From IMG/VR virus record IMGVR_UViG_3300027969_000136, positions 1 to 52,384 of that record: a stretch of 52,384 nucleotides of DNA. The stretch is one strand, 5' to 3'. The notes beneath the pieces are model-generated. The model ran no database searches, was not told the origin of the DNA, and saw only the letters and a list, made by a program, of their open reading frames with translations. A program made the translations under genes and the position numbers. How positions within the stretch are numbered: position 1 is the first letter of the stretch; each line of letters opens with the position of its first letter. The DNA comes from a virus. Its lineage: Duplodnaviria; Caudoviricetes. Shown here piece by piece: positions 1,386-50,753 of the stretch.

Positions 1386-2528
1386 TTATGCTTCACAATG
1401 AATCGCATCGAACAGTGTGCAGAGCACTGTCGATGAGTCGTAGGTGTGAGCCATTGTGATGGCTTCTTGTAGTAATTCTGTGGTGAGTAGCCTGCGGTTG
1501 AGGAACCGCACAGCAATCAGTGGATCTTCAGGGTATACCGCCTCGCTGATAAGCTCAAGCAAGAAGTCATAGCGTTCATCAAGCGCATCGTCAATGGCGT
1601 CAAGCAAGTCCTCTGTCTCCCAGTAGTCATCGTCTTGCCAGTGGCCAAAGTATTTGCTATCGACTTGGTTGTTGTGGTCGTACGCCTTGCTGTCGTATTT
1701 AGTCCACCACCCCGTCATACCCATGTCGTACTTGGTTTCCTTGTACTCAGGCACAGTCGGGTCACGATCAGTAGGCAGCTTGTCCCATTGAACCTGGAGG
1801 ACGGCCTGAGACAGTAGCTCGTAGTGGTGGATGTTGAGACACTCTTGCTGACTGTGCTCATGGTCATATCCTACACTGATGTTTGTACACTCGGGGATGA
1901 TGTCGATGAACTCAGCGGTATCCGTATACACACCCGTGTCGTCAGGGGTATACATCAGGTTCTCATCGTGCAAGTTAAGCGCATCGGCCAGTGCTTGACA
2001 GAAAGTATCAGACGCACAACGACTCCAGCCCTGATGACTGATGACGTTATCTGTACCCCGTCTGTCGAACGCTATGGCTCTGTCGAACTGAGCAAGCAAG
2101 GGCGCATGATTCTTCTCCAAGAACTTAGCACCGATACCACCGCACTCCTCGCCTTGGCTGAAGATGTAGTAGCCCTTGACCCCACTGTGCATCATGTGCA
2201 TGAGCAGAGCAACGCCTGCACCATCGTCAGCACCAAGCGGTGCGCCATCGGCATACCACATACCCGCAGTCTTCCTGATCTTGTTAGCACCTACCTCGCG
2301 GTGTACTGTGTCAACGTGAGCAATGAACAGGGTACGGCTACCTGCTATGCGGTTGTCGATGTGAAGATTACCTGCACCATCCACAGATGTGAACGACTTG
2401 AGTTCTGCGGGTAGCGTATTGAATAGCCACTCAGTGAAGTCAGACACAGCGACAGTATTGTGAGGACGCTTGGCAGACAACGCCCGAGCTAGGGTTTTGT
2501 GTAGTATTGATTTCTTGTTCATGTTCAT
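1386..2528 (-). CDS. M28/M20-family zinc-dependent peptidase
   Basis: Metal-ligand motifs AHVDTVH, LGADDGAG, GEECGG, AFDRRG and NISVGYDHEH; alternative start at 2522. Confidence 0.85.
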   Translation of the reverse strand: MNMNKKSILHKTLARALSAKRPHNTVAVSDFTEWLFNTLPAELKSFTSVDGAGNLHIDNRIAGSRTLFIAHVDTVHREVGANKIRKTAGMWYADGAPLGADDGAGVALLMHMMHSGVKGYYIFSQGEECGGIGAKFLEKNHAPLLAQFDRAIAFDRRGTDNVISHQGWSRCASDTFCQALADALNLHDENLMYTPDDTGVYTDTAEFIDIIPECTNISVGYDHEHSQQECLNIHHYELLSQAVLQVQWDKLPTDRDPTVPEYKETKYDMGMTGWWTKYDSKAYDHNNQVDSKYFGHWQDDDYWETEDLLDAIDDALDERYDFLLELISEAVYPEDPLIAVRFLNRRLLTTELLQEAITMAHTYDSSTVLCTLFDAIHCEA

Positions 2529-4219
2529 TCTCCTTGTGTTTCTAAGTATTTGTTTGCGATCTCGTTGGCTTGTGCCATGAGGTCAGTGCAAAGTATTTCA
2601 CGCACCATTCTGTTGAAGCCTGCTCTGTCTTGGCTATTGATGAACTCAGTGGTGTATCTGCGCTCAGCGCGTAGCTTGCGGTCATCGAGTGTGTAGGTCA
2701 GGCTGATAATTACATCGCCCATACCAATCGAGTAGTCCCATAGCATATGCACATTCCACAGCATATCCATGGTCAGCATGGTGGGCATACCCTCGTCCTC
2801 ATCAATGCGCTTGGGTGCATTGTCTTTGTGATAGCGCACACCCTCGATCTCAACCCAATCGGCACAGTCATCGGTGTACCAGTTGCACGACTGCTCGCAT
2901 TGCCAGCCGTCCTCGGTCAAGCCGTACTCATCGGTGTCCTCGAACCGACACACACGCTCATCGTCTATCAGATACCAGTCACCATTGATCTCAACGGCCT
3001 CATCCATCGGGGCGTACTCACCGCACTCAAGCTCAATGATCTCGTTGTCAGCAAGATAGTCCTCATCGTAGTGCTCGCTTTGAGAGTCGACATACACCAC
3101 GTTGTCGTTGTGTACATAGTACTGATTGCCTCGTCTGCCGTACACATAGGTGTAGTGGTTGTTAAGGCACGACTCACAGACACGAGTGTCCTCACCGCGT
3201 CCGATCCAGTACCCGTCATCGTCAGAGGTGCGGTCGCCACAGTCCTCACAGTCAAAGGAGTTCTCGTCCTCCTCATCATTGGTAGCATACCCGCCAGTGT
3301 TCTCGCATATCCAGTCACCATCCGAGTCGATCTCAAGCCAGCGCTCATGCTCGTTGACCTCAACGTGACGCTCACCGCCATCGAGGTAGGGTGCAAGGAA
3401 GTTGTCTCGTGCAGGATGGTACGCCAGCTTCTCACCCTCACGCCAGTAACCCTCCTTGGTATAGCCCTGTTCCTTGAGCCACGTATCCATGCCGTCATCT
3501 GTCTGACTGTAGCTGGACTCGTTGGATGGGCGCAGGTAACTGCGAACGAAATACTTGACGCCATCATCGGGGCTGGTCATACACAGCGCACGACCCATCG
3601 TGGTATCACCCTCGATGCGAACCGCCATGTGCCAGCCATACTTGGGATCGTATGCCTCGTAGGGGTGACGGGTCACGCCATCATCGCACTTGATACCATG
3701 ATCCTCGCCCCATACCATGCACGACTTCGGCCCACGATGTAGGTGGTAGATCATCTCGGCGGTAGTGTGTACGAGTTGGAACCGAGCCGCTGATCCGTAG
3801 CGTGAGACAAGATCACGGATGGTGTGATCGGGTAGGTCGAAGTGTCTGTTGAGATACTTGCCCACCGATGTGACAGTCTGAATGTCACGCCTACCCTTGT
3901 CCTCGTTCTGTGTGTAAGCGATCTTGGACTTGTCACCTTGGGATACATGAGGCCACTCAAGCAGCATCTGATGCCAGTCACGGGGACGAGCGATCAGAAC
4001 AGCGGCACGAATAACCTCGTGCATCTTGTAGCGTTGTATCTCGCGGTTGATCCAGCGTCTTGCCTCACGCTTCTCGTCAATAGCGATGCAAGTCTCGGTG
4101 TCGCGGGCTTGATGCCACTCCACCATCAGGTCGTGATCTACGATGCGGATAGACTGCTCCGCAAGATCAATGGTTTGTAGCATCTGTATGCCGTCATAAG
4201 TTGTGTCAGTGTGTGACAT
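2525..4219 (-). CDS. hypothetical 564-aa protein with GPKSCM motif and acidic Cys-rich (Zn-ribbon-like) C-terminal region
   Basis: Long ORF with strong SD; CEDC, CESC and CEQSC motifs in a D/E-rich region. Confidence 0.75.
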   Translation of the reverse strand: MSHTDTTYDGIQMLQTIDLAEQSIRIVDHDLMVEWHQARDTETCIAIDEKREARRWINREIQRYKMHEVIRAAVLIARPRDWHQMLLEWPHVSQGDKSKIAYTQNEDKGRRDIQTVTSVGKYLNRHFDLPDHTIRDLVSRYGSAARFQLVHTTAEMIYHLHRGPKSCMVWGEDHGIKCDDGVTRHPYEAYDPKYGWHMAVRIEGDTTMGRALCMTSPDDGVKYFVRSYLRPSNESSYSQTDDGMDTWLKEQGYTKEGYWREGEKLAYHPARDNFLAPYLDGGERHVEVNEHERWLEIDSDGDWICENTGGYATNDEEDENSFDCEDCGDRTSDDDGYWIGRGEDTRVCESCLNNHYTYVYGRRGNQYYVHNDNVVYVDSQSEHYDEDYLADNEIIELECGEYAPMDEAVEINGDWYLIDDERVCRFEDTDEYGLTEDGWQCEQSCNWYTDDCADWVEIEGVRYHKDNAPKRIDEDEGMPTMLTMDMLWNVHMLWDYSIGMGDVIISLTYTLDDRKLRAERRYTTEFINSQDRAGFNRMVREILCTDLMAQANEIANKYLETQGE

Positions 4220-4244
4220 CTTGCTTTCTCCTTAAGTTTCAAGT

Positions 4245-5470: not shown

Positions 5471-5487
5471 CGGGTCATTGTGACCCG
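5471..5487. repeat. palindromic motif copy 3, CGGGTCATTGTGACCCG
   Basis: Overlaps the stop codon of 5475..5657. Confidence 0.9.
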
Positions 5488-5657
5488 TTTTGCCATGCTT
5501 GACGCATTTCGGAGCGTGCTTCCATCTCCTCAACTTTACGCAAGGCCAGTGCTTTGCGCTCATCGTGCTTGATGCGTTCCTCATACTTGGGGCGTTGTTC
5601 GTTGTTCCACTTTGCGAGCGCGACTTGCTTGGGGGTGTAGTGCTTGAACTTGCTCAT
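5475..5657 (-). CDS. hypothetical protein, 60 aa
   Basis: AAGGAG SD; charged helical protein. Confidence 0.75.
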   Translation of the reverse strand: MSKFKHYTPKQVALAKWNNEQRPKYEERIKHDERKALALRKVEEMEARSEMRQAWQNGSQ

Positions 5658-5660: not shown

Positions 5661-5834
5661 TTACTCCTTGATGTAGGTGAGGATGTTGAGAACTGTACGG
5701 GCGGCATAGCCTGCAAAGACAAGAGAGGCTTGACGTAGCCAGAAGCCATCGCCATCCCATCCTGCGTAGAGCAGGCAACAGACGAGAAGCGTGCCCATGA
5801 TGGCCGCGAGTGCATGGTATTGATTGTCAGACAT
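5661..5834 (-). CDS. small two-TM membrane protein, 57 aa (start MSDNQYH)
   Basis: AAGGA SD before the ATG at 5834; two hydrophobic segments. Confidence 0.7.
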   Translation of the reverse strand: MSDNQYHALAAIMGTLLVCCLLYAGWDGDGFWLRQASLVFAGYAARTVLNILTYIKE

Positions 5835-5908
5835 GGTGTTTTCCTTTTTGGTTAGACAAGAAACGAAACAACGCAAGAGGCTCTTTCTCTTGCGCGTTCA
5901 GAAAAAAG

Positions 5909-5925
5909 CGGGTCACAGTGACCCG
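5909..5925. repeat. palindromic motif copy 4, CGGGTCACAGTGACCCG
   Basis: Perfect copy 4 nt after the stop codon of 5930..6307. Confidence 0.9.
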
Positions 5926-5929
5926 AAAA

Positions 5930-6307
5930 TCATGCAACGAGAGCTTTCAGGGCTTTGCGTTGTTCTGCAGGGGTGAGCTTGCCAAAGGCTTCGATGATTT
6001 TCGCAACAGGGTCAAGCGGTTCTTTCTTTGCGCTTGAGGTTCTGCGCGTAGTTCCCTCGATCATGTGCATGATGTCGCGCACTGTGGTCTTCGCGCCTTC
6101 GTACTTGGGGTGATCGCTCACCAGTACGATCTTGCCCGCCTTGGTTTCTCTGAACTCTGCGCCCGTCTTGCCACAAGCCCACTCGATGACAATGGGTCTG
6201 CACGCTTCGACTGTTGCGTAGCCCGCATCCTTCATGCCTTGTATGAGCTTGACCCGTGAGTCAGCGAATGTGTTGAGTGTTGCGAACGCTTTGGATTTGT
6301 TTGACAT
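5930..6307 (-). CDS. hypothetical basic protein, 125 aa (start MSNKSKAF), first gene of the leftward operon
   Basis: CAAGGAGAAACACC SD before the ATG at 6307. Confidence 0.8.
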   Translation of the reverse strand: MSNKSKAFATLNTFADSRVKLIQGMKDAGYATVEACRPIVIEWACGKTGAEFRETKAGKIVLVSDHPKYEGAKTTVRDIMHMIEGTTRRTSSAKKEPLDPVAKIIEAFGKLTPAEQRKALKALVA

Positions 6308-6408
6308 GGTGTTTCTCCTTGAATGTCGTTGTTGCCTCAGAGGGAATCCCTTATGGCTAACTCCATTGTGCATATACCCCTGTTTGATCGGGGTTGACTA
6401 CCCTTTTT

Positions 6409-6425
6409 CGGGTCACGTTGACCCT
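6409..6425. repeat. palindromic motif copy 5, CGGGTCACGTTGACCCT
   Basis: Same GGGTCA-N3-TGACCC core, upstream of the leftward operon. Confidence 0.85.
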
Positions 6426-6644
6426 GTTTTTAGGCGTTTTCCGCCCTATTTCGACCCCACCCTACCCCCACCAGCCCAAATTCGATGGTCACCCTCCTGC
6501 CCGACATGAACACTGTTCCATAACCGCACAGCAAACTTTGTAATAACTTAGTTCTAATCCTAGCCCTAACACCACACCCCCCATAAATTTTATAAAAATC
6601 CAGAAATACCCTTGTCTAATGTTTGACACCCCCTCTGTACAGAC

Positions 6645-6677
6645 AAAAAAAAGCCCCGGGTGCTTAAGTCCGGGGCT
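6645..6677 (-). terminator. Rho-independent terminator (AGCCCCGG...CCGGGGCT followed by a U-tract)
   Basis: 8-bp GC stem; A8 run at 6645-6652 gives a U-tract on the minus strand. Confidence 0.8.
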
Positions 6678-6763
6678 AAAGATGGCAACTGATACCATCA
6701 AGGAGAAAGCAAGCGAACTCGATGAGTTTGGCCAAAGGCCAAAACGATCTTGCGCACCCACTC
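6645..6763 (-). ncRNA. candidate trans-acting small RNA (~118 nt) with anti-Shine-Dalgarno seed CUUGCUUUCUCCUU
   Basis: Bounded by a sigma70-like promoter and an intrinsic terminator; internal hairpins; unpaired segment complementary to left-arm RBSs; 5' end is inferred. Confidence 0.6.
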
Positions 6764-6779
6764 AATTTAAGTGTACATT
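6750..6779 (+). promoter_or_regulatory. putative rightward sigma70 promoter TTGCGC-N18-TACATT
   Basis: Consensus-like hexamers upstream of the terminase operon. Confidence 0.4.
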
Positions 6780-6798
6780 ATCTACATCGCAGGTTCAA
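6770..6798 (-). promoter_or_regulatory. putative leftward sigma70 promoter TTGAAC-N17-TACACT driving the sRNA
   Basis: Consensus-like hexamers with 17-nt spacing, ~120 nt upstream of a terminator. Confidence 0.6.
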
Positions 6799-6812
6799 GG
6801 GCTTATGCGCAG

Positions 6813-7388
6813 ATGTTAGATCACTTAATCAATTTCGAACCCGAGGTGAGCGCTCACCCGGGTAACTTCGTCCCCATGGAAAAGACAGATCCATCGGACG
6901 TGGTGGACGGCATGGCCAAAACGGTTGACTGGCTCAAGGAGCTTGGAGCCGTGGACACAGATACTTTGGTCAATGAGTCCCAAAGCCAAGCAGCACGTAC
7001 TGCTTTCACGAACATCGTTACCGCCAAACCTGCGGAAATGACGCATACCTCTCTGGCAAACATCAAAACGCCTGAAGCTGTACAGAAACTTGTAGGGATG
7101 CTGTCTGCCTACGACTGGGAGTTTGTAGAGCAGGCCAAGCAAATCAGGGGCTACACAGTGGCCAAGTTGGTGGAAGAAACCGAACACCCCAACGCCAACA
7201 TCCGCCTCAAAGCGCTGGGTTTGTTGGGCAAAGTCACCGAAGTTGGGCTGTTTACTGAGAAGATTGAGATTAAGAAGACCGAGTTGTCAGACGTTGAGCT
7301 TGAAGTGCGGATCAAGGAAAAGCTCAACAGGTTCATGGGTGTGATCGACGTGGTTGACATAAGCGAAGAAGACACTGATGAAGCGTGA
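6813..7388 (+). CDS. putative terminase small subunit (start MLDHL)
   Basis: Immediately upstream of and overlapping TerL; C-terminal RLKALGLLGK...GLFTEK is TerS-like. Confidence 0.6.
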   Translation: MLDHLINFEPEVSAHPGNFVPMEKTDPSDVVDGMAKTVDWLKELGAVDTDTLVNESQSQAARTAFTNIVTAKPAEMTHTSLANIKTPEAVQKLVGMLSAYDWEFVEQAKQIRGYTVAKLVEETEHPNANIRLKALGLLGKVTEVGLFTEKIEIKKTELSDVELEVRIKEKLNRFMGVIDVVDISEEDTDEA

Positions 7389-8919
7389 CGCTTTTACAAC
7401 ACTCAGTAAGCTTGAGCTTGAGGCCATGGAGAAGGCGTTGCCGTACATGAACGTGCAAGAAAAGATGGAACTCTTTGAAGACTTGGAGCTTCGTGAGAAA
7501 CGCGCCAGCTTGAAAGCGGCAGGAACCAACATGCTGGGGTTTGCCAAGGCGGTCTACCCCGGATTCAAAGTCGGCCCTCACCATAAAAAACTAGCAAAAA
7601 TCTTCACCGATGTCGTAGAAGGCCGCAAAAAAAGGGTCATCATCAACATCGCGCCGCGTATGGGTAAGTCTGAGTTCTCGTCTTATTTGTTCCCCGCATA
7701 CTTCCTAGGTAAATACCCTGAGAAGAAAATCATCATGGGCACGCACACTGCAGGTCTGTCTGAGGACTTTGGCAGGCGGATCAGAAACTTGATTGACACC
7801 GAGGAGTACCGTGAAGTCTTCCCTCAAACAATGGTGGCGGATGACCAGAAGGCTGCTGGAAAATGGTCTACTAGTGCTGGTGGTCAGTACTATGCTGCTG
7901 GTGTCGGAGGAGCTCTTGCCGGTCGTGGTGCCGATTTGTTTGTTATTGACGATCCTCATTCTGAACAAGATGTGAAATCCAACAGCCGTTTAGCGTTTGA
8001 CACGGCATGGTCTTGGTTCCAAACGGGCCCGCTTCAGCGCTTGATGCCGGGTGGTGGGATCATCATCGTGATGACACGCTGGTCACTGCTTGACCTGACC
8101 GGACGCCTGATCGACTACCAGACCAAAAACCCCGAAGCTCTGCCTTGGGAGATTGTGGAGTTGCCCGCCATCCTGAACGATGGGGAGGAGGACGAGAAGT
8201 CCCTCTGGCCAGACCAGTGGTCGCTTGAAGCGCTCAAATCCACCAAGGCATCCATTGACCCACGGTACTGGAACGCACAGTACATGCAGCAGCCAACGGC
8301 TGAAAACTCGGCCATTGTGAGCCGTAAGATGTGGCGTATCTGGGAGGCAGACGAGCCGCCAACGTGTGAGTACATCATCCAGTCATGGGACACGGCGTTT
8401 GAGACCAAGACCAACTCCGACTATTCCGCGTGTACAACGTGGGGTATCTTCTACAACGAGGAAGAAAATGACTCGCCCCAACTTATCTTGCTCGACGCTT
8501 TTAAAGACCGGATGGCTTTTCCAGAACTTAAGACCGTTGCGCTTAAGCACTACAAGGAGTGGGAACCCGACGCGTTCATTGTGGAGAAAAAGGCGGCTGG
8601 CGCACCACTGATCCAAGAACTTCGGGCGATGGGCATACCTGTGCAGGAGTTCAGCCCAAGCCGTGGCAACGACAAGACTGTGCGGGTCAACGCAGTTGCG
8701 GATTTGTTCAGCAGTGGTAAAGTCTGGGCACCCGACACACGCTGGGCACGGGAAGTGATTGAAGAGATGGCCGCGTTCCCAGTTGGGGAGCACGACGACT
8801 ACGTGGATACAACAACACAGGCGCTGCTACGCTTTAGGCAAGGCGGCTTTATCAGTTTGGACACGGACGAGAAAGATGACTCGGAAATCTTTCGCCGTAA
8901 GACGCACGCATACTACTAG
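7378..8919 (+). CDS. terL: terminase large subunit
   Basis: Walker A APRMGKS, Walker B FVIDDPH, VMTRW motif, nuclease SWDTA and HDDYVD. Confidence 0.95.
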   Translation: MKRDAFTTLSKLELEAMEKALPYMNVQEKMELFEDLELREKRASLKAAGTNMLGFAKAVYPGFKVGPHHKKLAKIFTDVVEGRKKRVIINIAPRMGKSEFSSYLFPAYFLGKYPEKKIIMGTHTAGLSEDFGRRIRNLIDTEEYREVFPQTMVADDQKAAGKWSTSAGGQYYAAGVGGALAGRGADLFVIDDPHSEQDVKSNSRLAFDTAWSWFQTGPLQRLMPGGGIIIVMTRWSLLDLTGRLIDYQTKNPEALPWEIVELPAILNDGEEDEKSLWPDQWSLEALKSTKASIDPRYWNAQYMQQPTAENSAIVSRKMWRIWEADEPPTCEYIIQSWDTAFETKTNSDYSACTTWGIFYNEEENDSPQLILLDAFKDRMAFPELKTVALKHYKEWEPDAFIVEKKAAGAPLIQELRAMGIPVQEFSPSRGNDKTVRVNAVADLFSSGKVWAPDTRWAREVIEEMAAFPVGEHDDYVDTTTQALLRFRQGGFISLDTDEKDDSEIFRRKTHAYY

Positions 8920-41232: not shown

Positions 41233-41306
41233 ATCGCGCCATAATAGCGACACGCGCTTCTTGAACTCCGGCATCGCGTGGCCGGAAGACAATTCGATTG
41301 ATAGCA

Positions 41307-44300
41307 ATGGCTAACTACATCAAACTGCCGGACGGCTCTTTCTTTCCCGTTGAGGAAGGTGAAAACTACACATCCGCTATGCGTGCTGCGTACGCAAAGT
41401 ACCCAGAAGCGTTTGGTGCAGAAAAACAAGAAGCCCCTAAGAAAAGCGGTATCACTGGTGCCATCGGTAAAGGGTTTGAATCCACGCTAAGTCAACTTCG
41501 TTCTGGCGTTGGCAAATACATAAACCCCGAAGAAGCTGCTGTAGCCGGGTTGCAACGTGGCGAAGAAATTTCAGGTAAATACGCCGATCAAATTGGAATT
41601 GATAAAGTCAAAGAAGCATACAACAAAGATGGTGTTCTTTCTGCGGCTAAAGAAGTTGGTCGCCAAATCCCTTTGGCTATTGCCGAACAAGCGCCTAACC
41701 TTGCGGCTTCTTTTGGTGGAGCGCGTTTAGGAGCAATGGCGGGTGCTCCGCTTGGCCCTTATGGTGCATTGGCTGGGGGCGCGTTGGGAGCTTTTCTTCC
41801 ATCTAAATTACAGAGCTTAGGCGGTGACATTGAACGTCAAGCTCAAGAACAAACTGCTCGAGGTGAGCCTGTAAAAATTGACACGGGTGCAGCAGAACTT
41901 GCTTCTACAGGGCAAGGAGCTTTAGAAGTCATCGCCACATTCGTCCCGTTTGGTAAACAGCTTGTTTCTAAATTGACGGGTATCCCCGCTAAAGCGTTGA
42001 CCATTGGTACAGGTAATGCGGCAAAACTTGCCGAAGAACGCCTTGCTACTACGCTTGCCAAAGGCACGGGGGTGGGTGTGTTGGCCGAAGTGCCAACAGA
42101 GATTACTCAACAAATGCTGGAGCGTGCACAGGCAGGGTTATCCCTAACTAGCCAAGACGCTCTGGAAGAATACGGGCGCACAGCCTATCAAGTCGGTTTG
42201 CTTGCCCCACTGGGTGCGGCAGGCCGCTTGTCCTCAAAAGCCGGTGCTAAGCAAGAAGTTGCCGCCAAAAAAGCGGAAGAGCAAAACCTTGCCGTTACAA
42301 CAGCGTTTAAAGAATCCGAAGCCAAGGCCACAGCACCCGAAGCACTGACCCAACTGGACGACCAGTATCGTGCTGCAACGCAGCACATGGCGTCTTTGCA
42401 ACAAGACTTGGTCAAGCCTGCCAAGGGTGCTACGCCAGAAGAGAAAGCCGCATACGCCCAAGCCAAGCAAGAGTTTGACACTTTCCGCAAGGAAGAGTTC
42501 ATGCCTTTGAAGCAAGAGTATGAGAAGCGCAAGCCCCTGATTGAAAAGATGCAGGACGAGCGCCAAGCCGCGCTAGAGGCGCAAACTGGTGCGGAGCAAC
42601 CCACAGCAGCCAAGTACGGGACAACCGACATCCCCGGTGCCGCGCCGTATTCACAACAACCCGTTGTGCGTTTGATGGAGCAACAAGACAACTTGCGCCA
42701 GCAGTTTGGTCAGCTAGAAGACAGGTTGACGGCAGCCACACCAGAAGAGTACGCACAGATTCACCCCGAGTACGAAGCAGTCAAAGCACGTCTGACGGAG
42801 ATGGGTAGTGCCATCGACGAGCGCGGCGGTGTGTCGGTGTCCGAAAAAGACTTTGTCAAACAGTTGGCCGCTGAGACTAAGAAGTTCCAAGACTTCCAGC
42901 AAAAGGGTGAGTTTGATAAAGCCAAGGAGCAAGCTGACAAGCTGGCCAACTTGAAGAAACGCCAAGCATTGTTTGATGAGATGCGTGCTGCCCGTGAGCA
43001 GCGTGGCCAGACGGGTGAGTTGTTTACCCAAGAGCAAGCACCTTTGGCTCCAACGGAAAAGCCTGAAGGCCCAGCGCAGCCAACCACTGTGCCCGGTATT
43101 GCAGAAACACCTGCGCAAGCCATGCAGTTTGAACCCAAGGAAGTGGTGGCTGAGACGCCCCGCCCCGAAGGTTACGGCATGAAACCCGTAAAAGAAGCGG
43201 TGACTTTGCCAAGCCAACGCGATCCAAAACAACTCGACATCTTTAGCCAAGAGAACATTACGCGCACGGGCATGACGCCTGAAGAACGCGCAGCGGCTGA
43301 TCGCCGTGTTGCGGAAGCCACAAACGTTCCTGCTGGACGGATAGCTCAATCTATCAAAGACGCTGAAAAGCAGCGCATGACTCGGGTACTAGATACACGT
43401 TTGAATCTTGCCGGAACAGAAGCCCAGCGCACTGTGACGCCAGAGCAGTACGACGCAACAATGGAGCAGATCAAAACGCTTCACAATAAAGTTGTGAAAG
43501 CACAAGGCAACGCCACCAAGTCTTATTTGCAACAGTTGTTTGATTTGGCAGACCAAGAAAAAGCTTTGGTGGATAGCATCAACACTGCGCAAACAGCAGG
43601 CAAGTCCGTTACGCGCTTGAACAAACAACTTAATGGTCTTCGCAATCGCTACGACAACATCTTCAACACGCACGTTGATCCCGCTCGTAAAAAGATTGAA
43701 ACGTTGTACCAAGGTATGTACAAGGCTAAACCTGCGGTCAAAGCCAGTGTTGTGGCGGCTGAAAAGAAAGCAGCCGGCGAAGCCCAGCTTGGCACGCTCA
43801 AAATTAAAAACGCTGAAGGCAAGACCATTGGCGCTAAAGTAAGCCGCGCTGTCAAAGAAACCAAACGGATTAGCGAAGGCAACGTTCGTAAGGAAGCCGA
43901 AGACTCTGCGCAGATGCGCAAACTGGCCGATGATTTGGGCAGACAAGAACCTGAGTTTGACAAACTGGGTAAATCCATGACGAAGCGCTTGAAGGCGCTT
44001 CAAGAGAAGTACGGCAGAAACGACCCTGCTGTGACTGCGTTCCAGCTACAGATGAACGATGCGCTAAATGCCAAAGCGCTTGAACTTGGGCGGCAAACAC
44101 CAGAGTACAAGGCTACGCTTGCGGAGCAGACAGGCATTGTTAAAGAAGCACTGGCGCAAAGCAAACAGACAACCCCATCTAAACGCACTGTTCAAGAGAC
44201 TCGTAAGGTGCGCCGTGCACCAACGGAAGAACGTACAGGCTCTGCTGAAAGCCGTGCAACTACAGAAAGAAAAGCTTTGCGTGAAGCAGGTTCACGCTTG

Positions 44301-47300
44301 ACCAAAGCGCAGGTTGAGGAGCTTGTCAAAACAGCGTATGACACCGATGGTGGCACAGCCTACCGCACCCGTGAGACAGAAGGCGAGAGCGTTGATCCTA
44401 AAGCCGCATCGGACTTCATTGAAAAAGTGCAGAGTAAACTGCCTGAGAACGTCAAGCTGGTATATGCCGCTACCCCCGGCAAGATTCCTGTTCGTCTGCT
44501 CAAGCAGATGTCCAATGAAGGCATTGACCCAACCGAAGCCATGGTGCAAGGCGCTGTATTCAGTGACGGCACGGTCTTGGTGGTGGGCGACCAGCACGTT
44601 GACTTGAAAGATTTGGAAGCCACCGTACTGCACGAGTTGGTTGGCCACTACGGTATTGACACCATCATCGGGCTAGAGCGCCTCCAAGCCTACGCCAACA
44701 AGACAGACCTTCGTGCACTGGCTGAAGAAATTGGTGGCCAAGACCTGCTCAACGAAGTGATCCGTACTGCGCAAGCTAACGAACGCATGGGTCGAAGCGT
44801 AGAAGTTCAGAAACTTCAAGCACTGCGCGAGATCATTGCGCATACTGAAGAAGCTCGCGTAAACGAAAGCTTCAAACAAAAAGCTGGCCGATGGCTCAAA
44901 GAGTTGATCGGGATGGTTCGCGCAGGCTTGCGTGACATGGGCTTTACTTCTTCCTCTCTACTATCAACATCTGACGTTTTCTATTCTTTGCGTCAGTCTC
45001 GTCAGGCGTTTGCATCCAAACGGCTTGGCCCTTACCGCGCAGCCGATGGCCAGATTGCTTTCCGTACCAAGGTTGACCCCGGAGTTAAGTCTTCGTTCAT
45101 TGCAACCAAGCCTTCGATCAAAGACCGCCTCATGGGGAACTTCCTTGGGTTGGCGGGTCGCGTGCAGTTGGTTGACCAGCATGCCGCCATCTCTGAAGCA
45201 TTCAAACGTGGCGCAGATAAGGGCATCATCTCCTCTGCCGAGGCGCTTAACGGTGAATGGTTGTTACGCTTTGGGCAGAACGTAAGCCAATACGCTCAGC
45301 AATTCATGACGCATGGCCGTGTGCAATATCAAACCGTGACACGTAATGGCGTGACGGAAAAGATTTTCATGAGCGACAAAGGCCCCAACATGTTGGATGC
45401 CGCCGAAGCGTTGTACAAGGGCAAGTTTGACAGCGACACAGAAGCCGAAGCGTTCTTGACTGCCTACGTTGCCGGGCAGCGTGCCGAAGCTGTGGGCTGG
45501 GAGAAGCTGAACTACAAAGACCCTGCCGCAGTCAAGCGCGAGTACCAAGAGCGCATGGCCGCACTCAAAGCAAACCAAACACAGTTTGATGCCGTGCAGG
45601 AAGCTGCCAAGATTTATCAAACGTACAACAACGGCTTGATTGACTTCCTTGTGCAAACGGGCGAGATGACTCCCGAGAAAGCTGCAGCGCTCAAGAAGAT
45701 TCCTTACATTCCGTACTACCGCGTGGACGGCGACTCACTCAACTTGTTTGTGGCTGGGGAAAAACCCATCCGTATTGGCAACGTCAAAGACCAACCCGAA
45801 CTCCAGCAACTGGTGGGCGGTGAAGATCAGATCATGCCAATCTTTACGAGTGCAGTGCAAAATACTTTTATCTTGACCCGGATGGGTTTGCGCAACGCCA
45901 TGATGAAAGACAACTCTTTCCTCCTGCACAAGCTTGGTATGGCCAGCAAAATTGGCCCCGGCATGGGCCCCAAAGGAGAGAACGTTGTTCGCTTCAAAGT
46001 CAAAGGCAAGGATCACTTTGCTGTCATTGACACAGACAAGTTTGACATCCCCGCTGAGTTGGTGGTCAAGGGTATGGAAGGCATCAAGACCACACTGCCA
46101 GCCGCTATCCGTCTGATGGGCTACCCCGCAGATATTCTGCGTAAGTTTGTGACTCGCAACCCTGCGTATGCTGTGCGTCAGGTTATCCGCGATCCTTTGA
46201 ACGCGTGGCTCACTACTGGTACAGACGCTACGCCTGTCTTAAGTTCCATGAAAGAGTTGGCTAAGATGGTGGCGGGGCGTAGCGAAACCGAAGAACAGCT
46301 TATGCGTACAGGCGCGATCAGTAGCAACGTCTTCTCCGGCAATGCCCGTGACATGGATATGCTTTTGCGTGACATTACCGCTGGTAAATCTGGTTGGGCT
46401 AAGTTGATGGCCAAGGCTGATGCGCTTGCTATGCAGGGCGATGCGGCTACCCGTGCTGTGATATATAAGGAATCCATTGACAAGGGAATGTCCGAACAAC
46501 AGGCGCTTCTCCGTACGCTTGAGTCCATGAACTTTGGCCGTCGTGGTTTGTCGCCTAGCATGCAGATGCTCTCGACTGTGATCCCGTTCTTTAACGCACA
46601 GATTCAAGGTCTGGACGTGCTGTACCGCGCATACAAAGGACAGATGCCGTTCAATGAACAGCTAAAGATCAAAGAGAAAATGATGCAACGCGGTATGTTC
46701 ATGGCGTTGGGAACCATCGCTTACGCCGCCGCTATGCAAGACGACGAAGCCTACAAACGTGCCAAGCCAGAGGAACGCTACGGCAACTGGTTCATCTACA
46801 TCCCCGGCTTTGACGAACCTATCAAAGCGCCTATCCCGTTTGAATTGGGTTACTTGTTTAAGGCGTTGCCCGAAGCTGTGTGGAACATGGCGGCAGGTGA
46901 CGAGAAAGCCTCCAAAGCAGTGGGCGGTTTCCTCAAACTTCTTGGCCAGTCCAATCCGTTTGGTCTGCCCCAAGCTGTCAAGCCTGTGGCTGAAGTGGTA
47001 CTCGGTAAGTCGTTCTTCAGTGGCGACATTGAATCAGCCCGTGAGAAGCAACTGCTGCCAAGCGAACGCTACCGCGACAACACAACGGAACTTGCCAAGC
47101 TCATCGGAGCAGCAACGGCAAGCAAAACCGTCAAGGACATCACGGGTAAGGAAGGCATCACGCCTATCGAGATTGACTACCTCATCCGTGGCTACACCGG
47201 CGGTCTGGGTATTGCCATTGTGCAGTTGGCCAACCCGCTGTTTAACATGGAAATGAAATCTGATGTTGCCAAGCCATCACTTAAGTTGAGCAAGACTCCG

Positions 47301-47654
47301 TTCATTGGTGGTTTGTTCCAACCCGTTGAAGGCCGTGGCACACTGGACGAAGCGTATAGCATGATGGAGCAGGTCAAGCAAACCAAGGCCACGTACAACA
47401 GCTTGGTGGAAAAAGGCGAACGTGCCGAGGCCAGAGCCTTCGCACAGGAGAACGCAGATAAGTTGGCGCTTGCTTCCACATCCGGTCAGGTATTCAAGTT
47501 CTTGGGCGAACTAGCCAAGCAAGAGCGCATAGTGAAAGCCGATCCACGCTTGACTACCGAGCAGAAAGATGAACGCTTGGCAAGACTTGACCAACAAAAG
47601 ATCAACTACGCTCGTCGCTTTATCCTCCTAGGCGATAGAACCACACGCCAGTAA
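41307..47654 (+). CDS. giant internal virion / polyvalent protein with zincin-like HExxGH motif and C-terminal LPD38-like domain
   Basis: 2115 aa; VLHELVGHYG; IPFFNAQIQG, NWFI, PIPFELG and KPVAEVVLGKSFF motifs. Confidence 0.75.
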   Translation: MANYIKLPDGSFFPVEEGENYTSAMRAAYAKYPEAFGAEKQEAPKKSGITGAIGKGFESTLSQLRSGVGKYINPEEAAVAGLQRGEEISGKYADQIGIDKVKEAYNKDGVLSAAKEVGRQIPLAIAEQAPNLAASFGGARLGAMAGAPLGPYGALAGGALGAFLPSKLQSLGGDIERQAQEQTARGEPVKIDTGAAELASTGQGALEVIATFVPFGKQLVSKLTGIPAKALTIGTGNAAKLAEERLATTLAKGTGVGVLAEVPTEITQQMLERAQAGLSLTSQDALEEYGRTAYQVGLLAPLGAAGRLSSKAGAKQEVAAKKAEEQNLAVTTAFKESEAKATAPEALTQLDDQYRAATQHMASLQQDLVKPAKGATPEEKAAYAQAKQEFDTFRKEEFMPLKQEYEKRKPLIEKMQDERQAALEAQTGAEQPTAAKYGTTDIPGAAPYSQQPVVRLMEQQDNLRQQFGQLEDRLTAATPEEYAQIHPEYEAVKARLTEMGSAIDERGGVSVSEKDFVKQLAAETKKFQDFQQKGEFDKAKEQADKLANLKKRQALFDEMRAAREQRGQTGELFTQEQAPLAPTEKPEGPAQPTTVPGIAETPAQAMQFEPKEVVAETPRPEGYGMKPVKEAVTLPSQRDPKQLDIFSQENITRTGMTPEERAAADRRVAEATNVPAGRIAQSIKDAEKQRMTRVLDTRLNLAGTEAQRTVTPEQYDATMEQIKTLHNKVVKAQGNATKSYLQQLFDLADQEKALVDSINTAQTAGKSVTRLNKQLNGLRNRYDNIFNTHVDPARKKIETLYQGMYKAKPAVKASVVAAEKKAAGEAQLGTLKIKNAEGKTIGAKVSRAVKETKRISEGNVRKEAEDSAQMRKLADDLGRQEPEFDKLGKSMTKRLKALQEKYGRNDPAVTAFQLQMNDALNAKALELGRQTPEYKATLAEQTGIVKEALAQSKQTTPSKRTVQETRKVRRAPTEERTGSAESRATTERKALREAGSRLTKAQVEELVKTAYDTDGGTAYRTRETEGESVDPKAASDFIEKVQSKLPENVKLVYAATPGKIPVRLLKQMSNEGIDPTEAMVQGAVFSDGTVLVVGDQHVDLKDLEATVLHELVGHYGIDTIIGLERLQAYANKTDLRALAEEIGGQDLLNEVIRTAQANERMGRSVEVQKLQALREIIAHTEEARVNESFKQKAGRWLKELIGMVRAGLRDMGFTSSSLLSTSDVFYSLRQSRQAFASKRLGPYRAADGQIAFRTKVDPGVKSSFIATKPSIKDRLMGNFLGLAGRVQLVDQHAAISEAFKRGADKGIISSAEALNGEWLLRFGQNVSQYAQQFMTHGRVQYQTVTRNGVTEKIFMSDKGPNMLDAAEALYKGKFDSDTEAEAFLTAYVAGQRAEAVGWEKLNYKDPAAVKREYQERMAALKANQTQFDAVQEAAKIYQTYNNGLIDFLVQTGEMTPEKAAALKKIPYIPYYRVDGDSLNLFVAGEKPIRIGNVKDQPELQQLVGGEDQIMPIFTSAVQNTFILTRMGLRNAMMKDNSFLLHKLGMASKIGPGMGPKGENVVRFKVKGKDHFAVIDTDKFDIPAELVVKGMEGIKTTLPAAIRLMGYPADILRKFVTRNPAYAVRQVIRDPLNAWLTTGTDATPVLSSMKELAKMVAGRSETEEQLMRTGAISSNVFSGNARDMDMLLRDITAGKSGWAKLMAKADALAMQGDAATRAVIYKESIDKGMSEQQALLRTLESMNFGRRGLSPSMQMLSTVIPFFNAQIQGLDVLYRAYKGQMPFNEQLKIKEKMMQRGMFMALGTIAYAAAMQDDEAYKRAKPEERYGNWFIYIPGFDEPIKAPIPFELGYLFKALPEAVWNMAAGDEKASKAVGGFLKLLGQSNPFGLPQAVKPVAEVVLGKSFFSGDIESAREKQLLPSERYRDNTTELAKLIGAATASKTVKDITGKEGITPIEIDYLIRGYTGGLGIAIVQLANPLFNMEMKSDVAKPSLKLSKTPFIGGLFQPVEGRGTLDEAYSMMEQVKQTKATYNSLVEKGERAEARAFAQENADKLALASTSGQVFKFLGELAKQERIVKADPRLTTEQKDERLARLDQQKINYARRFILLGDRTTRQ

Positions 47655-47817
47655 AACCGTCCCTGACCCCGACCTTGGCTCGGGCGTCAAACAAACGATG
47701 GCCGAGGGCTTTATTTAAACCCTCGGCTTTTATCTCAGCCGTGTCGATGCAAGGGACAAAGAACCCCTGCCCCCTCTCAAGCCGCTGCCATGGATACTGG
47801 ATTGATAATTTCTTCAT
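47620..47817 (-). CDS. small putative DNA-binding protein (YPWQRLERGQGFFVP)
   Basis: YPW..L..G..FFVP pattern; GAGGA-like SD within the upstream gene. Confidence 0.7.
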   Translation of the reverse strand: MKKLSIQYPWQRLERGQGFFVPCIDTAEIKAEGLNKALGHRLFDARAKVGVRDGFTGVWFYRLGG

Positions 47818-50740
47818 CCAAGGTCGAGTTCTCTCTGGAGATTTTCATTGTTGAAACCCGCATCGGGGGGCCGCTGGTTCTAGCCATCATGTCTTTCTTG
47901 GGCATGTAGGACACCACAAATTGCTTCTCAAGCTGACGCTTGAAGTCAGCGTAACCAAAGCTCATGTTGGAGCAGAAGGTTTTAAGCAAGCGCTCCTCAA
48001 TGTAGAAGTCTGTGTGGTTGGCTGTTACGCCATGCTCCACCCGCCCCATAACTACCGAGCGAGTTGTCGATGCGTCAATCTCAGCAGTACCGCCAAGGAG
48101 TGCCACAGCGCCAGACTTGGAGTTAAAGCGCACCACCACGAACTTGCCGTAATACTCTTGGATGAAGCCGTTGAGCACATCCTCTGCACTGCGCTTGTTG
48201 GTCTTGATGTTGCCCCGAGCCGTGTTGACACGCAGGATCAGAAAGTCTTTCATCTCGCTCAACGGGAAGTCAATAATGCCAAGGTGCTTACTGCCCAGAG
48301 ACAGGCCAGCGGCCATCATTGCACCGATGCCGGCCATCCAGAAACGCTCGTCATTGGTAGCGTTGAAATCCTTGTAGCAGTTACGCACGATCTCAGGCAC
48401 AAGGGTCTTGAGCATGGGCACATTCTTGGCCAAGAAGTTAGCCAACTCGTATCCTACCAAGGCGTAGTTCTTATGCAAGGACTTGATGACCTCGATCTCA
48501 TGGGGCTCCCACGACAACTCTTCGTCCATGATGAATTCAAGAACGCGGCGCAGTTCACCCTCAGACGAGTGCTTGCGTGATCCGGTTAGGTAGTCCACAA
48601 CGTGGGTATTGGAGGACATGATGGCCACTGTCTGCCAAGTCGAGAGGTTGATACGCTCCTTGTTAGCGCCTGACTCCATACGCTCCTTGCCGCGACCCTC
48701 GGTCATGTCCAGTAGGAACTCGGGAAACCACTCAGCATCCTTGCGGTTCTTGGCGGTGATCTCATCCGTTACTAGCGGCATGCTGCCAAGCAGTCCAAGG
48801 CGTTGTTGCATGGCGACAGGCGATGTGCCCTTACCAGTGCGGTAGTGAACGGGGTGACCCCAGACTGAAGCCGCACCTTCCAGCGCCAGTGACTTACCCG
48901 TACCCGACTCGGTTGAACCGCAGTGATAAGTCATCCCATAAATGCCCGTAAACCGCATAAAAGGGGCGCTGGCGCCTGCCAAAACGATGGACAGATGTCC
49001 ATATAGCCTCTTGGCAATTAAAAGCTTTATGAAGGCTACCCAAGTTTCCATTGAACCAGTAGGTCTGGTGTTGGCCACGATGTTCTCAAGACCGGGCATC
49101 GGCACTTCGACAGGGGCTCCAGTGGCGCTGAAGATTTTGCCTGCGAAAACAAAAGTATCATTATCTTGCCAGCCGTAGTTGGCTGGTACTTTGACGGGTG
49201 ATTTATCGTTGCTCATTTTCTCCACGCTCGCACGTACGTAATCAAATAAATTCTTATCGTTGCCTCGACCAAACGATGCCACGATATTCTGGTTGGCCAG
49301 TGCCTTGACTGTTTCATCTTGACTCACGACAGCCTTCTGCGCCATCGTAATGTTCTGTACGCCCTCACGCCTGATGGCCATGAAGTGCACTGTGTGTTCT
49401 CCGTTGTGGCTCAAGATGTCCACAGGGAAAAGATCGTAGGGAATAATCAAAACGCTACGCATGACCTTGTTGCCCTGCGCGTCTTCGTCTTCCTTCTGAA
49501 TGAAAATGCCACCGCGCTCACCATAAGCGTAGCCACGGGGTGCTTCAGGGCGAAGCACCTTCTTGACTTCCTCGTCCATTGAAACGCGGGGTAGCTCCAC
49601 CACACTCTCAACTGTGGTCACCGCCATGTCGCGGCCAAAGATCAGCGGGTTTGTAATCTTGCCCCAGTGTGGGCAACTTGGGCAGACTCCGGGGTTCTCC
49701 GAATCCATCTTCGTGCAGGGGTAGGGGCCTTTGATTTCAGCCAACTTGGTGCGCATGCGGTCTTCGCTGTACGGGTGCATGTCGCTGATCCACTTCGATG
49801 CACCTTCGCCATCCACACAGACCTTCGTCCAAGACAGGATACCGCGCCACAAAGGTTCCATGCCGTCCTGTTCAGCGTGCTCTACGTAGTGTGAGATTTG
49901 GCCACAGCCTGTACCAGCACGGGTCTTGACCACGATGTTCTTGAAGCGGGTGACGCTGTTCTCAAACAACTTGACCTGACTTGCGCTTGGTGTGGATGGT
50001 CTAGTACCGGGAAGCTCAACCACGTTGTCAGGCTGTTTGGCCATACTTACTTCGTACTGCGTGCCGATCAGGTTCTTCTCCACCACTGCGCGGATGTCTG
50101 CCAACTCGAACACAGCGCCTTCGCTCATGAAGCGCACGTTGGTTTGAGCGCGCACCTTCTTGCGATTCTTGATGCCGGTATTGATCGTGGCAGGGATGCG
50201 CAGGACGCGGGATGCGTCTGACGTTACTGTGGGGTCAATGTCCAGTTTGTTCTGGTAGCACATGCGCTTGAACGCCTCGGCCACCGGCTTCCACTCGTTG
50301 ACATCCACAGCTTCGGAGAGTGGCCAGTATGCGTGCACACCACCGCCAGACGCCACCATCCACGGGTCGCCCAATGCAGACAACCCAGTAGTCTCGGTGA
50401 ACTCCATGATGGCTTGAGCCGCCAGCTTTGCACTAGCGTACGCCTTGGGCTTGATGTTGCCTTCCGCATCAGGCAGGTCTTTGGGATGGTTGCAGTCCAC
50501 GTCGATGGCAAAGGTCTTGACCATGTGCACGTTATCCGCAGTCCTGTTGTTGTCGTCCCCAAACGTACCTAACGCAAAGTAAATATCTTCACCCGCCTTC
50601 TTCCATCTGTCGATGAAAGGTTGTGCTTCCTCCAGTGTGTGAACATAGGCATGTTCTTTTCTTTTTGAAAGTTCCACCACGCAATAGCGCCCATTTCCGG
50701 GCGGTGGCAAAACCGCCGCTACAAACTCAAGCGGTTCCAT
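47777..50740 (-). CDS. primase-helicase (N-terminal primase domain + DUF927 + P-loop helicase)
   Basis: DVD, SGGGVHAYW and RVLRIP primase motifs; CPSCPH; Walker A ESGTGKS, Walker B VTDE; GRGKER. Confidence 0.85.
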   Translation of the reverse strand: MEPLEFVAAVLPPPGNGRYCVVELSKRKEHAYVHTLEEAQPFIDRWKKAGEDIYFALGTFGDDNNRTADNVHMVKTFAIDVDCNHPKDLPDAEGNIKPKAYASAKLAAQAIMEFTETTGLSALGDPWMVASGGGVHAYWPLSEAVDVNEWKPVAEAFKRMCYQNKLDIDPTVTSDASRVLRIPATINTGIKNRKKVRAQTNVRFMSEGAVFELADIRAVVEKNLIGTQYEVSMAKQPDNVVELPGTRPSTPSASQVKLFENSVTRFKNIVVKTRAGTGCGQISHYVEHAEQDGMEPLWRGILSWTKVCVDGEGASKWISDMHPYSEDRMRTKLAEIKGPYPCTKMDSENPGVCPSCPHWGKITNPLIFGRDMAVTTVESVVELPRVSMDEEVKKVLRPEAPRGYAYGERGGIFIQKEDEDAQGNKVMRSVLIIPYDLFPVDILSHNGEHTVHFMAIRREGVQNITMAQKAVVSQDETVKALANQNIVASFGRGNDKNLFDYVRASVEKMSNDKSPVKVPANYGWQDNDTFVFAGKIFSATGAPVEVPMPGLENIVANTRPTGSMETWVAFIKLLIAKRLYGHLSIVLAGASAPFMRFTGIYGMTYHCGSTESGTGKSLALEGAASVWGHPVHYRTGKGTSPVAMQQRLGLLGSMPLVTDEITAKNRKDAEWFPEFLLDMTEGRGKERMESGANKERINLSTWQTVAIMSSNTHVVDYLTGSRKHSSEGELRRVLEFIMDEELSWEPHEIEVIKSLHKNYALVGYELANFLAKNVPMLKTLVPEIVRNCYKDFNATNDERFWMAGIGAMMAAGLSLGSKHLGIIDFPLSEMKDFLILRVNTARGNIKTNKRSAEDVLNGFIQEYYGKFVVVRFNSKSGAVALLGGTAEIDASTTRSVVMGRVEHGVTANHTDFYIEERLLKTFCSNMSFGYADFKRQLEKQFVVSYMPKKDMMARTSGPPMRVSTMKISRENSTLDEEIINPVSMAAA

Positions 50741-50753
50741 ATTGTTTGCCTTG

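Follow-up and report, generated by a model that had tools for sequence, protein, structure and literature searches.

A conserved phage small RNA gene upstream of terS with a predicted anti-Shine-Dalgarno seed complementary to early-gene ribosome-binding sites

We analyzed a putative small RNA (sRNA) gene on the minus strand of IMG/VR virus record IMGVR_UViG_3300027969_000136 (Duplodnaviria; Caudoviricetes), at positions 6645–6798 of its 52,384 bases, which together make up the stretch of DNA examined here (the window; estimated completeness 83%). Leftward genes occupy the minus strand from ~6373 to 1 and again in a block at 47777–52384, and rightward genes occupy the plus strand from 6813 to ~47654, starting with putative terS, terL (7378–8919; phrog_38 match) and then the portal gene. 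The sRNA locus sits at the junction of the leftward and rightward blocks, directly upstream of terS and on the opposite strand. Read along the minus strand, it comprises, in order, a promoter of sigma-70 type, a hairpin at the 5′ end, the stretch (C)UUGCUUUCUCCUU, another hairpin and a strong terminator with a U tail, the latter consisting of AGCCCCGG-N10-CCGGGGCU followed by eight U (6677–6645), with six G-C pairs in its 8-bp stem. A preliminary description, made from the letters of this DNA, had proposed that a promoter and an intrinsic terminator bracket ~118 nt with no convincing open reading frame (ORF). Both elements are present, around a predicted RNA of ~119 nt, and the ORFs of 45–90 aa that overlap the region on either strand are not conserved in relatives. 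A consensus scan of positions 5800–7600 for promoters and terminators listed neither element: the promoter because it matches the sigma-70 consensus at 8 of 12 positions (hand count; threshold 9/12), and the terminator because its loop is 10 nt long (limit 8).

The predicted sRNA folds into three hairpins (P1, P2 and the terminator hairpin P3), with a minimum free energy (MFE) structure that coincides with the centroid (−46.6 kcal/mol, z = −3.92) and that one in 200 shuffled sequences equaled. Two hairpins named in the preliminary description, UUUGGCC/GGCCAAA and GAUGGUA/UGCCAUC, recur in this fold as a sub-hairpin of P1 and as P2, respectively, and the alternative AACUC/GAGUU is absent from the MFE structure. 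The proposal that a 14-nt seed between them (6713–6700) is unpaired holds for only half of it. The 5′ end of the RNA, GAGUGGGUG, pairs with CGCUUGCUU in a helix that has four G-U pairs and takes up the CUUGCUU part of the seed, and therefore only UCUCCUU (6706–6700) is left free; opening this core costs 0.0 kcal/mol, and opening the whole 14-mer 8.5 kcal/mol. In the window lineage P1 contains a 33-nt insert carrying the UUUGGCC/GGCCAAA sub-hairpin, and the 5′ strand of P1 differs by lineage (GAGUGGG, AGCAAG, GGUAAA) with its pairing to an invariant UUUGCU kept. Among the 58 distinct sequences aligned below, P1 falls into three classes by length, set apart by 33 and 24 nt (each a multiple of three); the short form is capped by a GCAA tetraloop and is also found in metatranscriptome and other contigs, which skip 34–35 nt relative to the window. 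Upstream of the terminator the sRNA carries a CUUU, which together with the U-tail is typical of Hfq-binding sRNAs.

Conservation of the locus was assessed by searching viral contigs for terS. Of 480 candidate stretches, 477 encoded relatives of this gene; the 80 best loci were retained and combined with the window into a set of 81 sequences, 58 of them distinct (terS identity 60–93%). Opposite terS, a unit formed by a promoter (TTGNNN-N16-18-TAYANT), the seed and a run of at least six T is present in 79 of the 81 sequences, the two misses being loci cut short upstream; the T run after the terminator hairpin, six to eight long, is kept in the same number. The −35 box lies 9–15 nt from the terS ATG in all distinct sequences, among which the TTG of the −35 box, positions 1, 2, 4 and 6 of the −10 box (T/A/A/T), a UGYGCAA block in P1, the UUUGCU of the seed and the C of its CUCC are all invariant. 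Positions 3 and 5 of the −10 hexamer vary (TACACT, TATACT, TATAGT, TATATT, TATAAT), and the promoter spacer (16–18 nt), the P1 insert, P2 and the terminator do so freely. The seed is hence conserved in homologous loci upstream of terS, as the reading in the preliminary description requires, and the three-hairpin layout is predicted for all 58 distinct sequences. A covariance model comprising the seed, P2 and the terminator (R1, built from 24 sequences) yields exactly one match in each of 58 sources (30–94 bits) and one copy apiece in the three whole genomes searched.

Structural covariation was evaluated on an alignment of 55 distinct rows obtained with a covariance model, which was used because the lineages are out of register in plain MAFFT alignments, where RNAalifold returned four meaningless pairs only. 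In the covariance-model alignment 95.3% of cells are paired, versus 75.5% in shuffles (none of 500 as high), and the covariation score is 0.503, versus 0.148 in shuffles and 0.05–0.08 in slid controls. Changes on both sides that preserve pairing are seen in 10 of the 14 pairs of P2 and the terminator, including all seven of P2. G-U pairs are frequent: one P2 pair, for instance, reads UG in 33 rows, and one P3 pair reads GU in 14 rows. Such pairs would be A-C mismatches on the plus strand, and the fold is therefore assigned to a minus-strand RNA. Judged from its sequence conservation and covariation, this locus is a real, conserved phage sRNA gene, previously undescribed.

The DNA complement of the seed, AAGGAGAAAGCAAG, has two exact copies in the window, one within the sRNA gene itself (plus strand) and the other on the minus strand, directly before the ATG of a 564-aa gene (Table 1), a perfect complementarity that the preliminary description had singled out. 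A third copy, with two mismatches, lies before a 63-aa gene; 0.31 copies with at most two mismatches are expected, and three or more occur in one of 100 shuffles. The six further ribosome-binding site (RBS) matches listed in that description are likewise all present (9–11 nt), with the seed complement corresponding to the Shine-Dalgarno sequence (SD) and spacer and, in some cases, the AUG. Heuristic gene calls provided 11 left-arm and 45 plus-strand genes for a systematic scan. At least eight contiguous bases complementary to the seed were found in seven of the 11 left-arm genes; among the plus-strand (late) calls the longest match is 7 nt, in keeping with the ~5–7 nt noted earlier for late-gene RBSs, with the exception of 8 nt at a miscalled start inside terS. 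Interactions were ranked by a seed-interval scan that includes the sRNA opening cost and leaves out the mRNA opening energy, a ranking with the full-length RNA having been discarded because it produced long gappy duplexes with positive net energies. The left-arm genes occupy ranks 1, 2, 3, 5, 6, 7, 8, 9, 26, 33 and 40 of 61, and their median interaction energy is −11.4 kcal/mol, versus −5.6 kcal/mol for the 45 plus-strand genes (Mann-Whitney p = 8e-5), so that left-arm RBSs are enriched over late ones. The 564-aa protein has no Pfam or PHROG family, and its nearest Atlas clusters are unnamed viral proteins.

Table 1. Features of the sRNA locus and complementary early-gene sites in the window
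Feature	Position	Strand	Evidence and remarks
−35 box TTGAAC	6793–6798	−	Sequence; TTG invariant in 58 distinct sequences; 14 nt from terS ATG
−10 box TACACT, preceded by TG	6770–6775	−	Sequence; spacer to −35 box 17 nt
Predicted sRNA, ~119 nt	6645–6763	−	Fold and conserved layout; start assumed 7 nt past −10 box
Hairpin P1	6707–6763	−	Folds; closing stem masks CUUGCUU
Seed CUUGCUUUCUCCUU	6700–6713	−	Single-stranded core UCUCCUU at 6700–6706
Hairpin P2, GAUGGUA/UGCCAUC	6681–6699	−	All 7 pairs compensatory in 55 distinct rows; 94.1% of cells paired
Intrinsic terminator P3 + U8	6645–6677	−	Sequence; 3 of 7 pairs compensatory; 96.4% of cells paired
Putative terS	6813–7388	+	Directly before terL; divergent from sRNA promoter
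Flanking palindrome GTCAAACATTAGAC (6614–6627) overlapping TAGACA-N18-TATAAA	6589–6627	−	Sequence; outside sRNA
Target RBS AAGGAGAAAGCAAG, 564-aa gene (2525–4219)	4220–4233	−	Best target; 14/14 nt, abuts ATG; rank 2/61
Target RBS TCAAGGAGAAA, first early gene (5930–6307)	6312–6322	−	11 nt; rank 1/61
Target RBS AAGGAGAAAGUAAA, 63-aa gene (1156–1347)	1347–1360	−	10 nt exact (1351–1360), 13 with one G-U
Target RBS CAAGGAGAAA, 59-aa gene (975–1154)	1159–1168	−	10 nt
Target RBS CAAGGAGAA, peptidase-like gene (1386–2522; phrog_4191, peptidase family)	2528–2536	−	9 nt
Target RBS AUCAAGGAGA (ATCAAGGAGA, 10 nt), 111-aa gene (278–613)	621–630	−	Complementarity
Target RBS CAUCAAGGAG (CATCAAGGAG, 10 nt), 60-aa ORF (5475–5657)	5664–5673	−	Pairing reaches into P2

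The search for target sites was extended to 14 related records (genomes are designated by G numbers and individual loci by L numbers). In most lineages the seed complement spans SD, spacer and AUG, with CAUUUGCUUCUCC in the RNA facing GGAGAAGCAAAUG in the mRNA. Non-self copies of the 11-mer GGAGAAGCAAA number 3, 4, 3 and 4 in G001–G004, respectively; all of them lie on the sRNA strand, each at a gene start (GGAG-AAGCAA-ATG) with differing upstream sequence, and the reversed pattern used as a control has none. The corresponding 11-mer GGAGAAAGCAA has 1, 1, 1, 1 and 2 non-self copies in G006–G010, again all on the sRNA strand. Across 11 genomes (G000–G010), exact matches of at least 10 nt number 3–15 per genome on the sRNA strand and 0–2 (non-self) on the other strand, and helices of at least 12 nt at ORF starts, with G-U pairs allowed, number 2–8 and 0–1, respectively. 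The contribution of the seed extension was gauged by shuffling the 13–14 nt located 5′ of CUCC and comparing counts of helices of at least 12 nt. The real count was equaled in none of 200 shuffles in G001, G002 and G004 and in 2–3 of 200 in G007–G010, so that in seven of 15 genomes no more than three of 200 shuffled extensions matched the real one. The signal of a conserved seed complementary to several mRNAs beyond chance is strong in these seven genomes and weak in the window.

Several targets recur among these genomes. A ~570-aa protein homologous to the product of the 564-aa window gene is a target in G006–G010, with helices of 12–13 nt kept, and the site at the RBS of the first early gene lies 322–389 nt after the sRNA in G007–G010. 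A SNF2-type helicase of ~520 aa recurs as a target in G001–G005 and G011, and a phrog_1233 protein does so in both main lineages. The recurrent set is completed by a Gam-like/DUF7307 protein of 134 aa, by an HNH endonuclease and by unknown proteins of small size. Targets are found as far as ~19 kb from the sRNA gene.

Seed and target sites also vary together, a covariation that the preliminary description had proposed looking for and that we find in part. We defined A-type sites as the complement of UUGCUUUCUCC and B-type sites as the complement of UUUGCUUCUCC, and counted both on the sRNA strand. The six genomes with a type A seed hold 20 A-type and two B-type sites, and the seven with a type B seed hold six and 20, respectively. 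In the orthologous first early gene, the 3′ flank of the seed and the bases before the SD vary in step: RBS UCAAGGAG corresponds to seed flank CUCCUUGA in the window lineage, CUUUAGGAG to CUCCUAGAG in L046, ACAGGAG to CUCCUGU in L069, CAGGAG to CUCCUG in L077, and AAAGGA to UCCUUU in G001-like genomes. When seed classes were permuted over 22 distinct pairs of seed and translation initiation region (13 seed classes; the window's own row used a miscalled start), the fit of each seed to its own first early gene (mean −13.46 kcal/mol) was reached in five of 2000 permutations.

On this body of comparative sequence evidence, we consider it probable that the locus encodes a trans-acting phage sRNA of ~85–120 nt that represses translation of the early genes as a group. 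The preliminary description had put forward the same function, which the conserved seed, the covarying hairpins, the preferential fit to early over late genes and the own-seed permutations all support. The sRNA would be made from its own sigma-70-type promoter and stopped at its intrinsic terminator, exposing between two hairpins the stretch UCUCCUU, a copy of the 16S anti-SD core. This core would nucleate pairing on the SD of early mRNAs transcribed from the same strand, and the duplex would then extend into the weakly paired, G-U-rich 3′ strand of P1, (CA)UUUGCUU, until it takes in the SD and spacer, plus the AUG in most lineages. Keeping 30S subunits off the mRNA would lower translation of the early-gene set, perhaps with mRNA decay. 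We infer repression because the pairing covers the region from SD through AUG, where the 30S subunit must bind; sRNA production, timing and the involvement of any chaperone are similarly inferred. The proposed target set, whose members would carry a stereotyped RBS (AAGGAGAAAG[C/U]AA-AUG in the window lineage, GGAGAAGCAAAUG in another), may include the first early gene and the 564-aa gene of the window and, in relatives, the SNF2 helicase, the Gam-like protein, the HNH endonuclease and small unknown proteins. As for timing, no tyrosine integrase (PF00589) was found in five near-complete relatives, a search that did not extend to serine recombinases or repressors, and two near-complete relatives have direct terminal repeats; lytic timing is therefore favored over lysogenic immunity, and the phages of this clade appear lytic. 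We suggest that the sRNA might accumulate during the lytic cycle and shut off or tune the early program.

Several observations weigh against this reading. The promoter match is weak, P1 masks half of the seed (opening cost 8.5 kcal/mol), and the covariation alignment was fitted to the structure under test and favors it; the diversity of P2 and terminator sequences is plain in the raw sequence listing, before any fitted alignment. The generally stronger SDs of early genes explain part of the contrast between the left arm and the late genes. In the window, where CUCC and its 3′ flank were kept fixed and the 14 nt located 5′ of CUCC were shuffled, 29 of 200 shuffles equaled the two helices of at least 12 nt, and seven of 200 reached the number found at 13 nt or more. 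By itself, the window establishes a single specific target and no more than hints at group targeting, which is weak there beyond SD strength. Among relatives, the real count was equaled in eight of 200 shuffles in G006 and in 21 of 200 in G003, and G005, G011, G012, G013 and G015 (20–75% complete) show no seed-extension enrichment. The covariation of seed and sites also has exceptions, since G005 and G015 combine a B-type seed with A-type sites only and the own seed ranks only 7–13 of 13 in L059, L064, L076 and L080; with lineages that are few and related, seed-RBS co-evolution appears partial but real. Regarding expression, a search of sequencing runs found only small shares (0.05–0.12) of the sampled words. 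Four metatranscriptome contig sets (X4, X5, X7 and X9) compared with positions 6400–7000 contain relatives, among them the form that lacks the 33-nt insert of P1, but their contigs continue over the sRNA promoter into terS without strand or end information, and so speak neither for nor against a discrete sRNA.

The same contigs bear on an alternative in which the RNA works mainly in cis, as an antisense regulator of the late (terS) operon, through antisense pairing, RNase III cleavage or transcriptional interference, or in a variant in which the late leader mops up the sRNA; such a role could coexist with trans action on early genes. The sRNA gene fills the DNA directly upstream of terS, with its −35 box within 15 nt of the terS ATG throughout the 58 distinct sequences, and a rightward late transcript starting to the left of it would carry a perfect complement of the whole RNA. 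No strong SD is seen by eye before the terS ATG, and metatranscriptome contigs join the sRNA gene to terS (6678–6941, 6670–6871 and 6677–6810), as expected of a plus-strand leader but also of contaminating DNA. The consensus scan of 5800–7600, however, found no rightward promoter, and a purely antisense role does not need an invariant seed, leaving unexplained both the matches of 12–16 nt at distant gene starts and their co-variation with the seed. We regard cis-antisense control as an unlikely main role; given where the gene lies relative to terS, it could still act on the late operon in addition, by cis-antisense pairing or by interference.

The generic nature of the free core UCUCCUU lends itself to a second explanation, whereby a host-directed anti-SD RNA binds the strong SDs of numerous host mRNAs and dampens host translation or metabolism in the manner of the Burkholderia "double-hairpin" sRNAs, and the matches to phage RBSs are a by-product of strong SDs. 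The best Rfam resemblance is indeed to such a family (RF02278, 27.9 bits), in which CU-rich unpaired stretches are the reverse complement of RBSs and overexpression of ncS27 slows growth (PMC5688073). This explanation does not account for the invariant UUUGCU, which lies outside the SD complement and matches phage spacers and AUGs far more often than its shuffled forms in seven of 15 genomes; moreover, late phage genes are spared and the seed flanks change with the RBS of the phage's own first gene. We consider a role of this kind quite unlikely.

It is more doubtful still that the element is the leader or attenuator of the leftward early operon, subject to conditional read-through and with its anti-RBS stretch acting in cis on downstream RBSs. 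It shares the orientation of the early genes and lies directly upstream of them, the first target RBS being located 322–389 nt past the terminator, and the c4 RNA of P1/P7 is likewise made from the transcript under its control. Against this stand the strength of the terminator and the retention of its T run in nearly all sequences, the separate promoter-like site and palindrome between the terminator and the first gene, and targets as far as ~19 kb away. Finally, we give hardly any credence to the notion that there is no RNA gene and that the plus strand encodes an N-terminal extension of terS or a leader peptide, with AAGGAGAAAGCAAG as coding sequence or a leftover RBS: in 30 of the 58 distinct sequences the terS frame does run uninterrupted through the seed, both large indels of P1 (33 and 24 nt) are multiples of three and the window contains a 45-aa plus-strand ORF at 6682–6819, but that frame is closed in the other 28 sequences, the window included, a 1-nt indel immediately ahead of the terS ATG separates close relatives (gap of 14 versus 15 nt), there is no conserved start codon and no PHROG match to the 45-aa ORF, substitutions are non-synonymous (Q/R/P, K/E; a 4-nt block change in the promoter spacer), and the G-U pairs and compensatory changes fit a minus-strand RNA only. 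A programmed frameshift joining ORF 6682–6819 to terS was also considered and rejected, as no slippery heptamer is seen by eye in the overlap and the frame relation varies among close relatives.

If a trans-acting sRNA does repress the early genes as a group, it may form part of a private "RBS code" in a widespread, apparently lytic clade of uncultured phages, in which SD-AAGCAA-AUG or a variant tags the early regulon and one anti-SD-mimicking sRNA lowers all of it; we advance this broader proposal tentatively, as a possibility that leans toward the doubtful. Under such a code the sRNA would be the RNA counterpart of the T4 RegA protein, and because the seed evolves together with the tag, the two could also be directed against co-infecting relatives bearing that tag while sparing others, much like c4 specificity in P1/P7. 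One RNA would then set the timing of translation for numerous unrelated early genes by way of a common RBS cassette that evolves along with it, adding a new layer of temporal control in lytic phages. Regulons of this type would be readable straight from metagenomic sequence, given at least 58 distinct versions and ~477 terS relatives, and the anti-RBS RNA and its RBS tag would provide a natural tunable pair. To our knowledge, each of the RNAs known to act on the mRNAs of its own phage (c4, sar, OOP) addresses a single gene or operon, and the phage in question is temperate. The majority of phage sRNAs reported in recent years have host genes as their targets. We found no published description of a phage sRNA targeting a set of its own early-gene RBSs in a search that excluded subscription journals and supplementary files.

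Between the sRNA terminator and the first early gene, the perfect-type palindrome GTCAAACATTAGAC is the sole copy in the window at up to one mismatch and is conserved just past the terminator in relatives as GTCTAACGTTAGAC. Together with the overlapping promoter-like site it probably forms a leftward early promoter with an operator for a putative repressor. In G001–G004 the palindrome occurs a second time, ahead of the gene for the 134-aa Gam-like protein, at whose RBS the seed match is complete. Within the leader of the leftward early operon, a plus-strand terminator-like hairpin, GGGTCACGTTGACCC followed by TGTTTTT, is located at 6410–6424, and in relatives several of the early-strand target RBSs have a hairpin of like type (…ACGTTGACCCC, then TTTTTT) ahead of them. 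The divergent intergenic region from the early leader to the sRNA (6430–6560) is unusually C-rich on the plus strand (ccccaccctacccccaccagccc…), for which a packaging site is one possibility. At the far end of the rightward block, a single 2118-aa ORF (41298–47654, plus strand) closes the series of plus-strand genes.

The best cultured matches to terL are those of Pelagibacter phages HTVC027P and HTVC023P and of phage DSL-LC04, at ~50% identity, and a distant blastn search with positions 5900–7500 yielded no DNA match to cultured phages. Model R1 found nothing convincing (best 13 bits) in the 7.3-kb terL loci of DSL-LC04 and HTVC027P, the only stretches of these phages searched. In the divergent gp34/gp35 region of HTVC027P (L158:169-289, minus strand) we observed a match to the Flavobacterium-1 RNA (RF02976; 90.2 bits, threshold 58.9), within a noncoding stretch of ~550 nt that is G+C-rich by eye. 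Among genome contigs, terS has one relative, on a 4.9-kb contig of a metagenome-assembled genome (MAG) labeled Phycisphaerales that also carries the sRNA (49 bits). Relatives of terL are scattered over MAG bins from many phyla, for the most part on contigs of short length, with three of 18 labeled Burkholderiaceae, Limnohabitans or Rhodocyclaceae; we draw no host from these relatives. A weak match to the sRNA model (24.3 bits) lies on an 84-kb contig of a MAG labeled Chitinophagales (L148:3193-3252, minus strand), upstream of a terL 75% identical to that of the window. It consists of UUUCUCCUU and a terminator, without the UUGC part, and its contig, which exceeds the phage genomes (~60 kb) in length, might represent either a larger relative or an integrated copy.

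Among known RNA families, the best Rfam match is RF02278 (Betaproteobacteria_toxic_sRNA), which aligns over its full model (1–64) with window positions 6646–6708 on the minus strand at 27.9 bits (gathering threshold 50; E = 0.0041 over 5800–7400 and 0.00064 over 6600–6850). Of 10 diverse relatives, two match weakly (28.7 and 25.8 bits) and eight not at all. The sRNA is therefore not a member of RF02278, and no C4 (RF01695) or isrK match at E ≤ 1 was found in 5800–7400 or 6600–6850. Members of RF02278 include ncS03, ncS05, ncS27 and ncS62 of Burkholderia cenocepacia, and Bordetella S17 is similar. The likeness is one of architecture: both are short RNAs with a CU-rich unpaired anti-RBS stretch followed by a hairpin and a terminator hairpin (PMC5688073), and the extra 5′ sequence of ncS27, which is processed off, parallels P1 (PMC5688073, PMC11722255). 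The family is chromosomal in Burkholderiales and other Betaproteobacteria and is predicted to act on host metabolic mRNAs, whereas the sRNA reported here is found in a virus record and viral contigs. Its extended seed, moreover, appears tuned to the phage's own RBS cassette.

In its logic, the nearest known phage RNA is c4 of P1/P7, followed by sar of P22. The c4 RNA is likewise phage-encoded, located upstream of its targets in the same orientation, and pairs around the RBS of the phage's own mRNA to block translation, with small complementary changes setting specificity between relatives (PMC12197685). The sRNA resembles it in its complementarity to the RBS region of a gene that lies downstream in its own phage and shares its direction of transcription. 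It differs in that c4 acts via loop sequences on a single operon (antirepressor, immunity) and belongs to a temperate phage, whereas the sRNA has an anti-SD seed placed between hairpins, its own promoter and terminator, and several unrelated putative targets spread over ~19 kb. In this respect its sequence conforms to the general plan of trans-acting sRNAs, with a predicted promoter and Rho-independent terminator of its own around a short non-coding unit. The sar RNA of P22 is transcribed opposite its single target, ant, and is hence fully complementary to it. Like the present sRNA as proposed, sar is described as a small phage RNA that blocks translation initiation of a phage mRNA by pairing (PMC12197685). 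Unlike those of sar, the targets of the sRNA are located elsewhere in the genome and share only 9–16 nt with it. In phage T4, a single protein, RegA, recognizes many early mRNAs at their start regions and halts their translation. The parallel with RegA is one of function only, for RegA is a protein and the reader proposed here is a base-pairing RNA.

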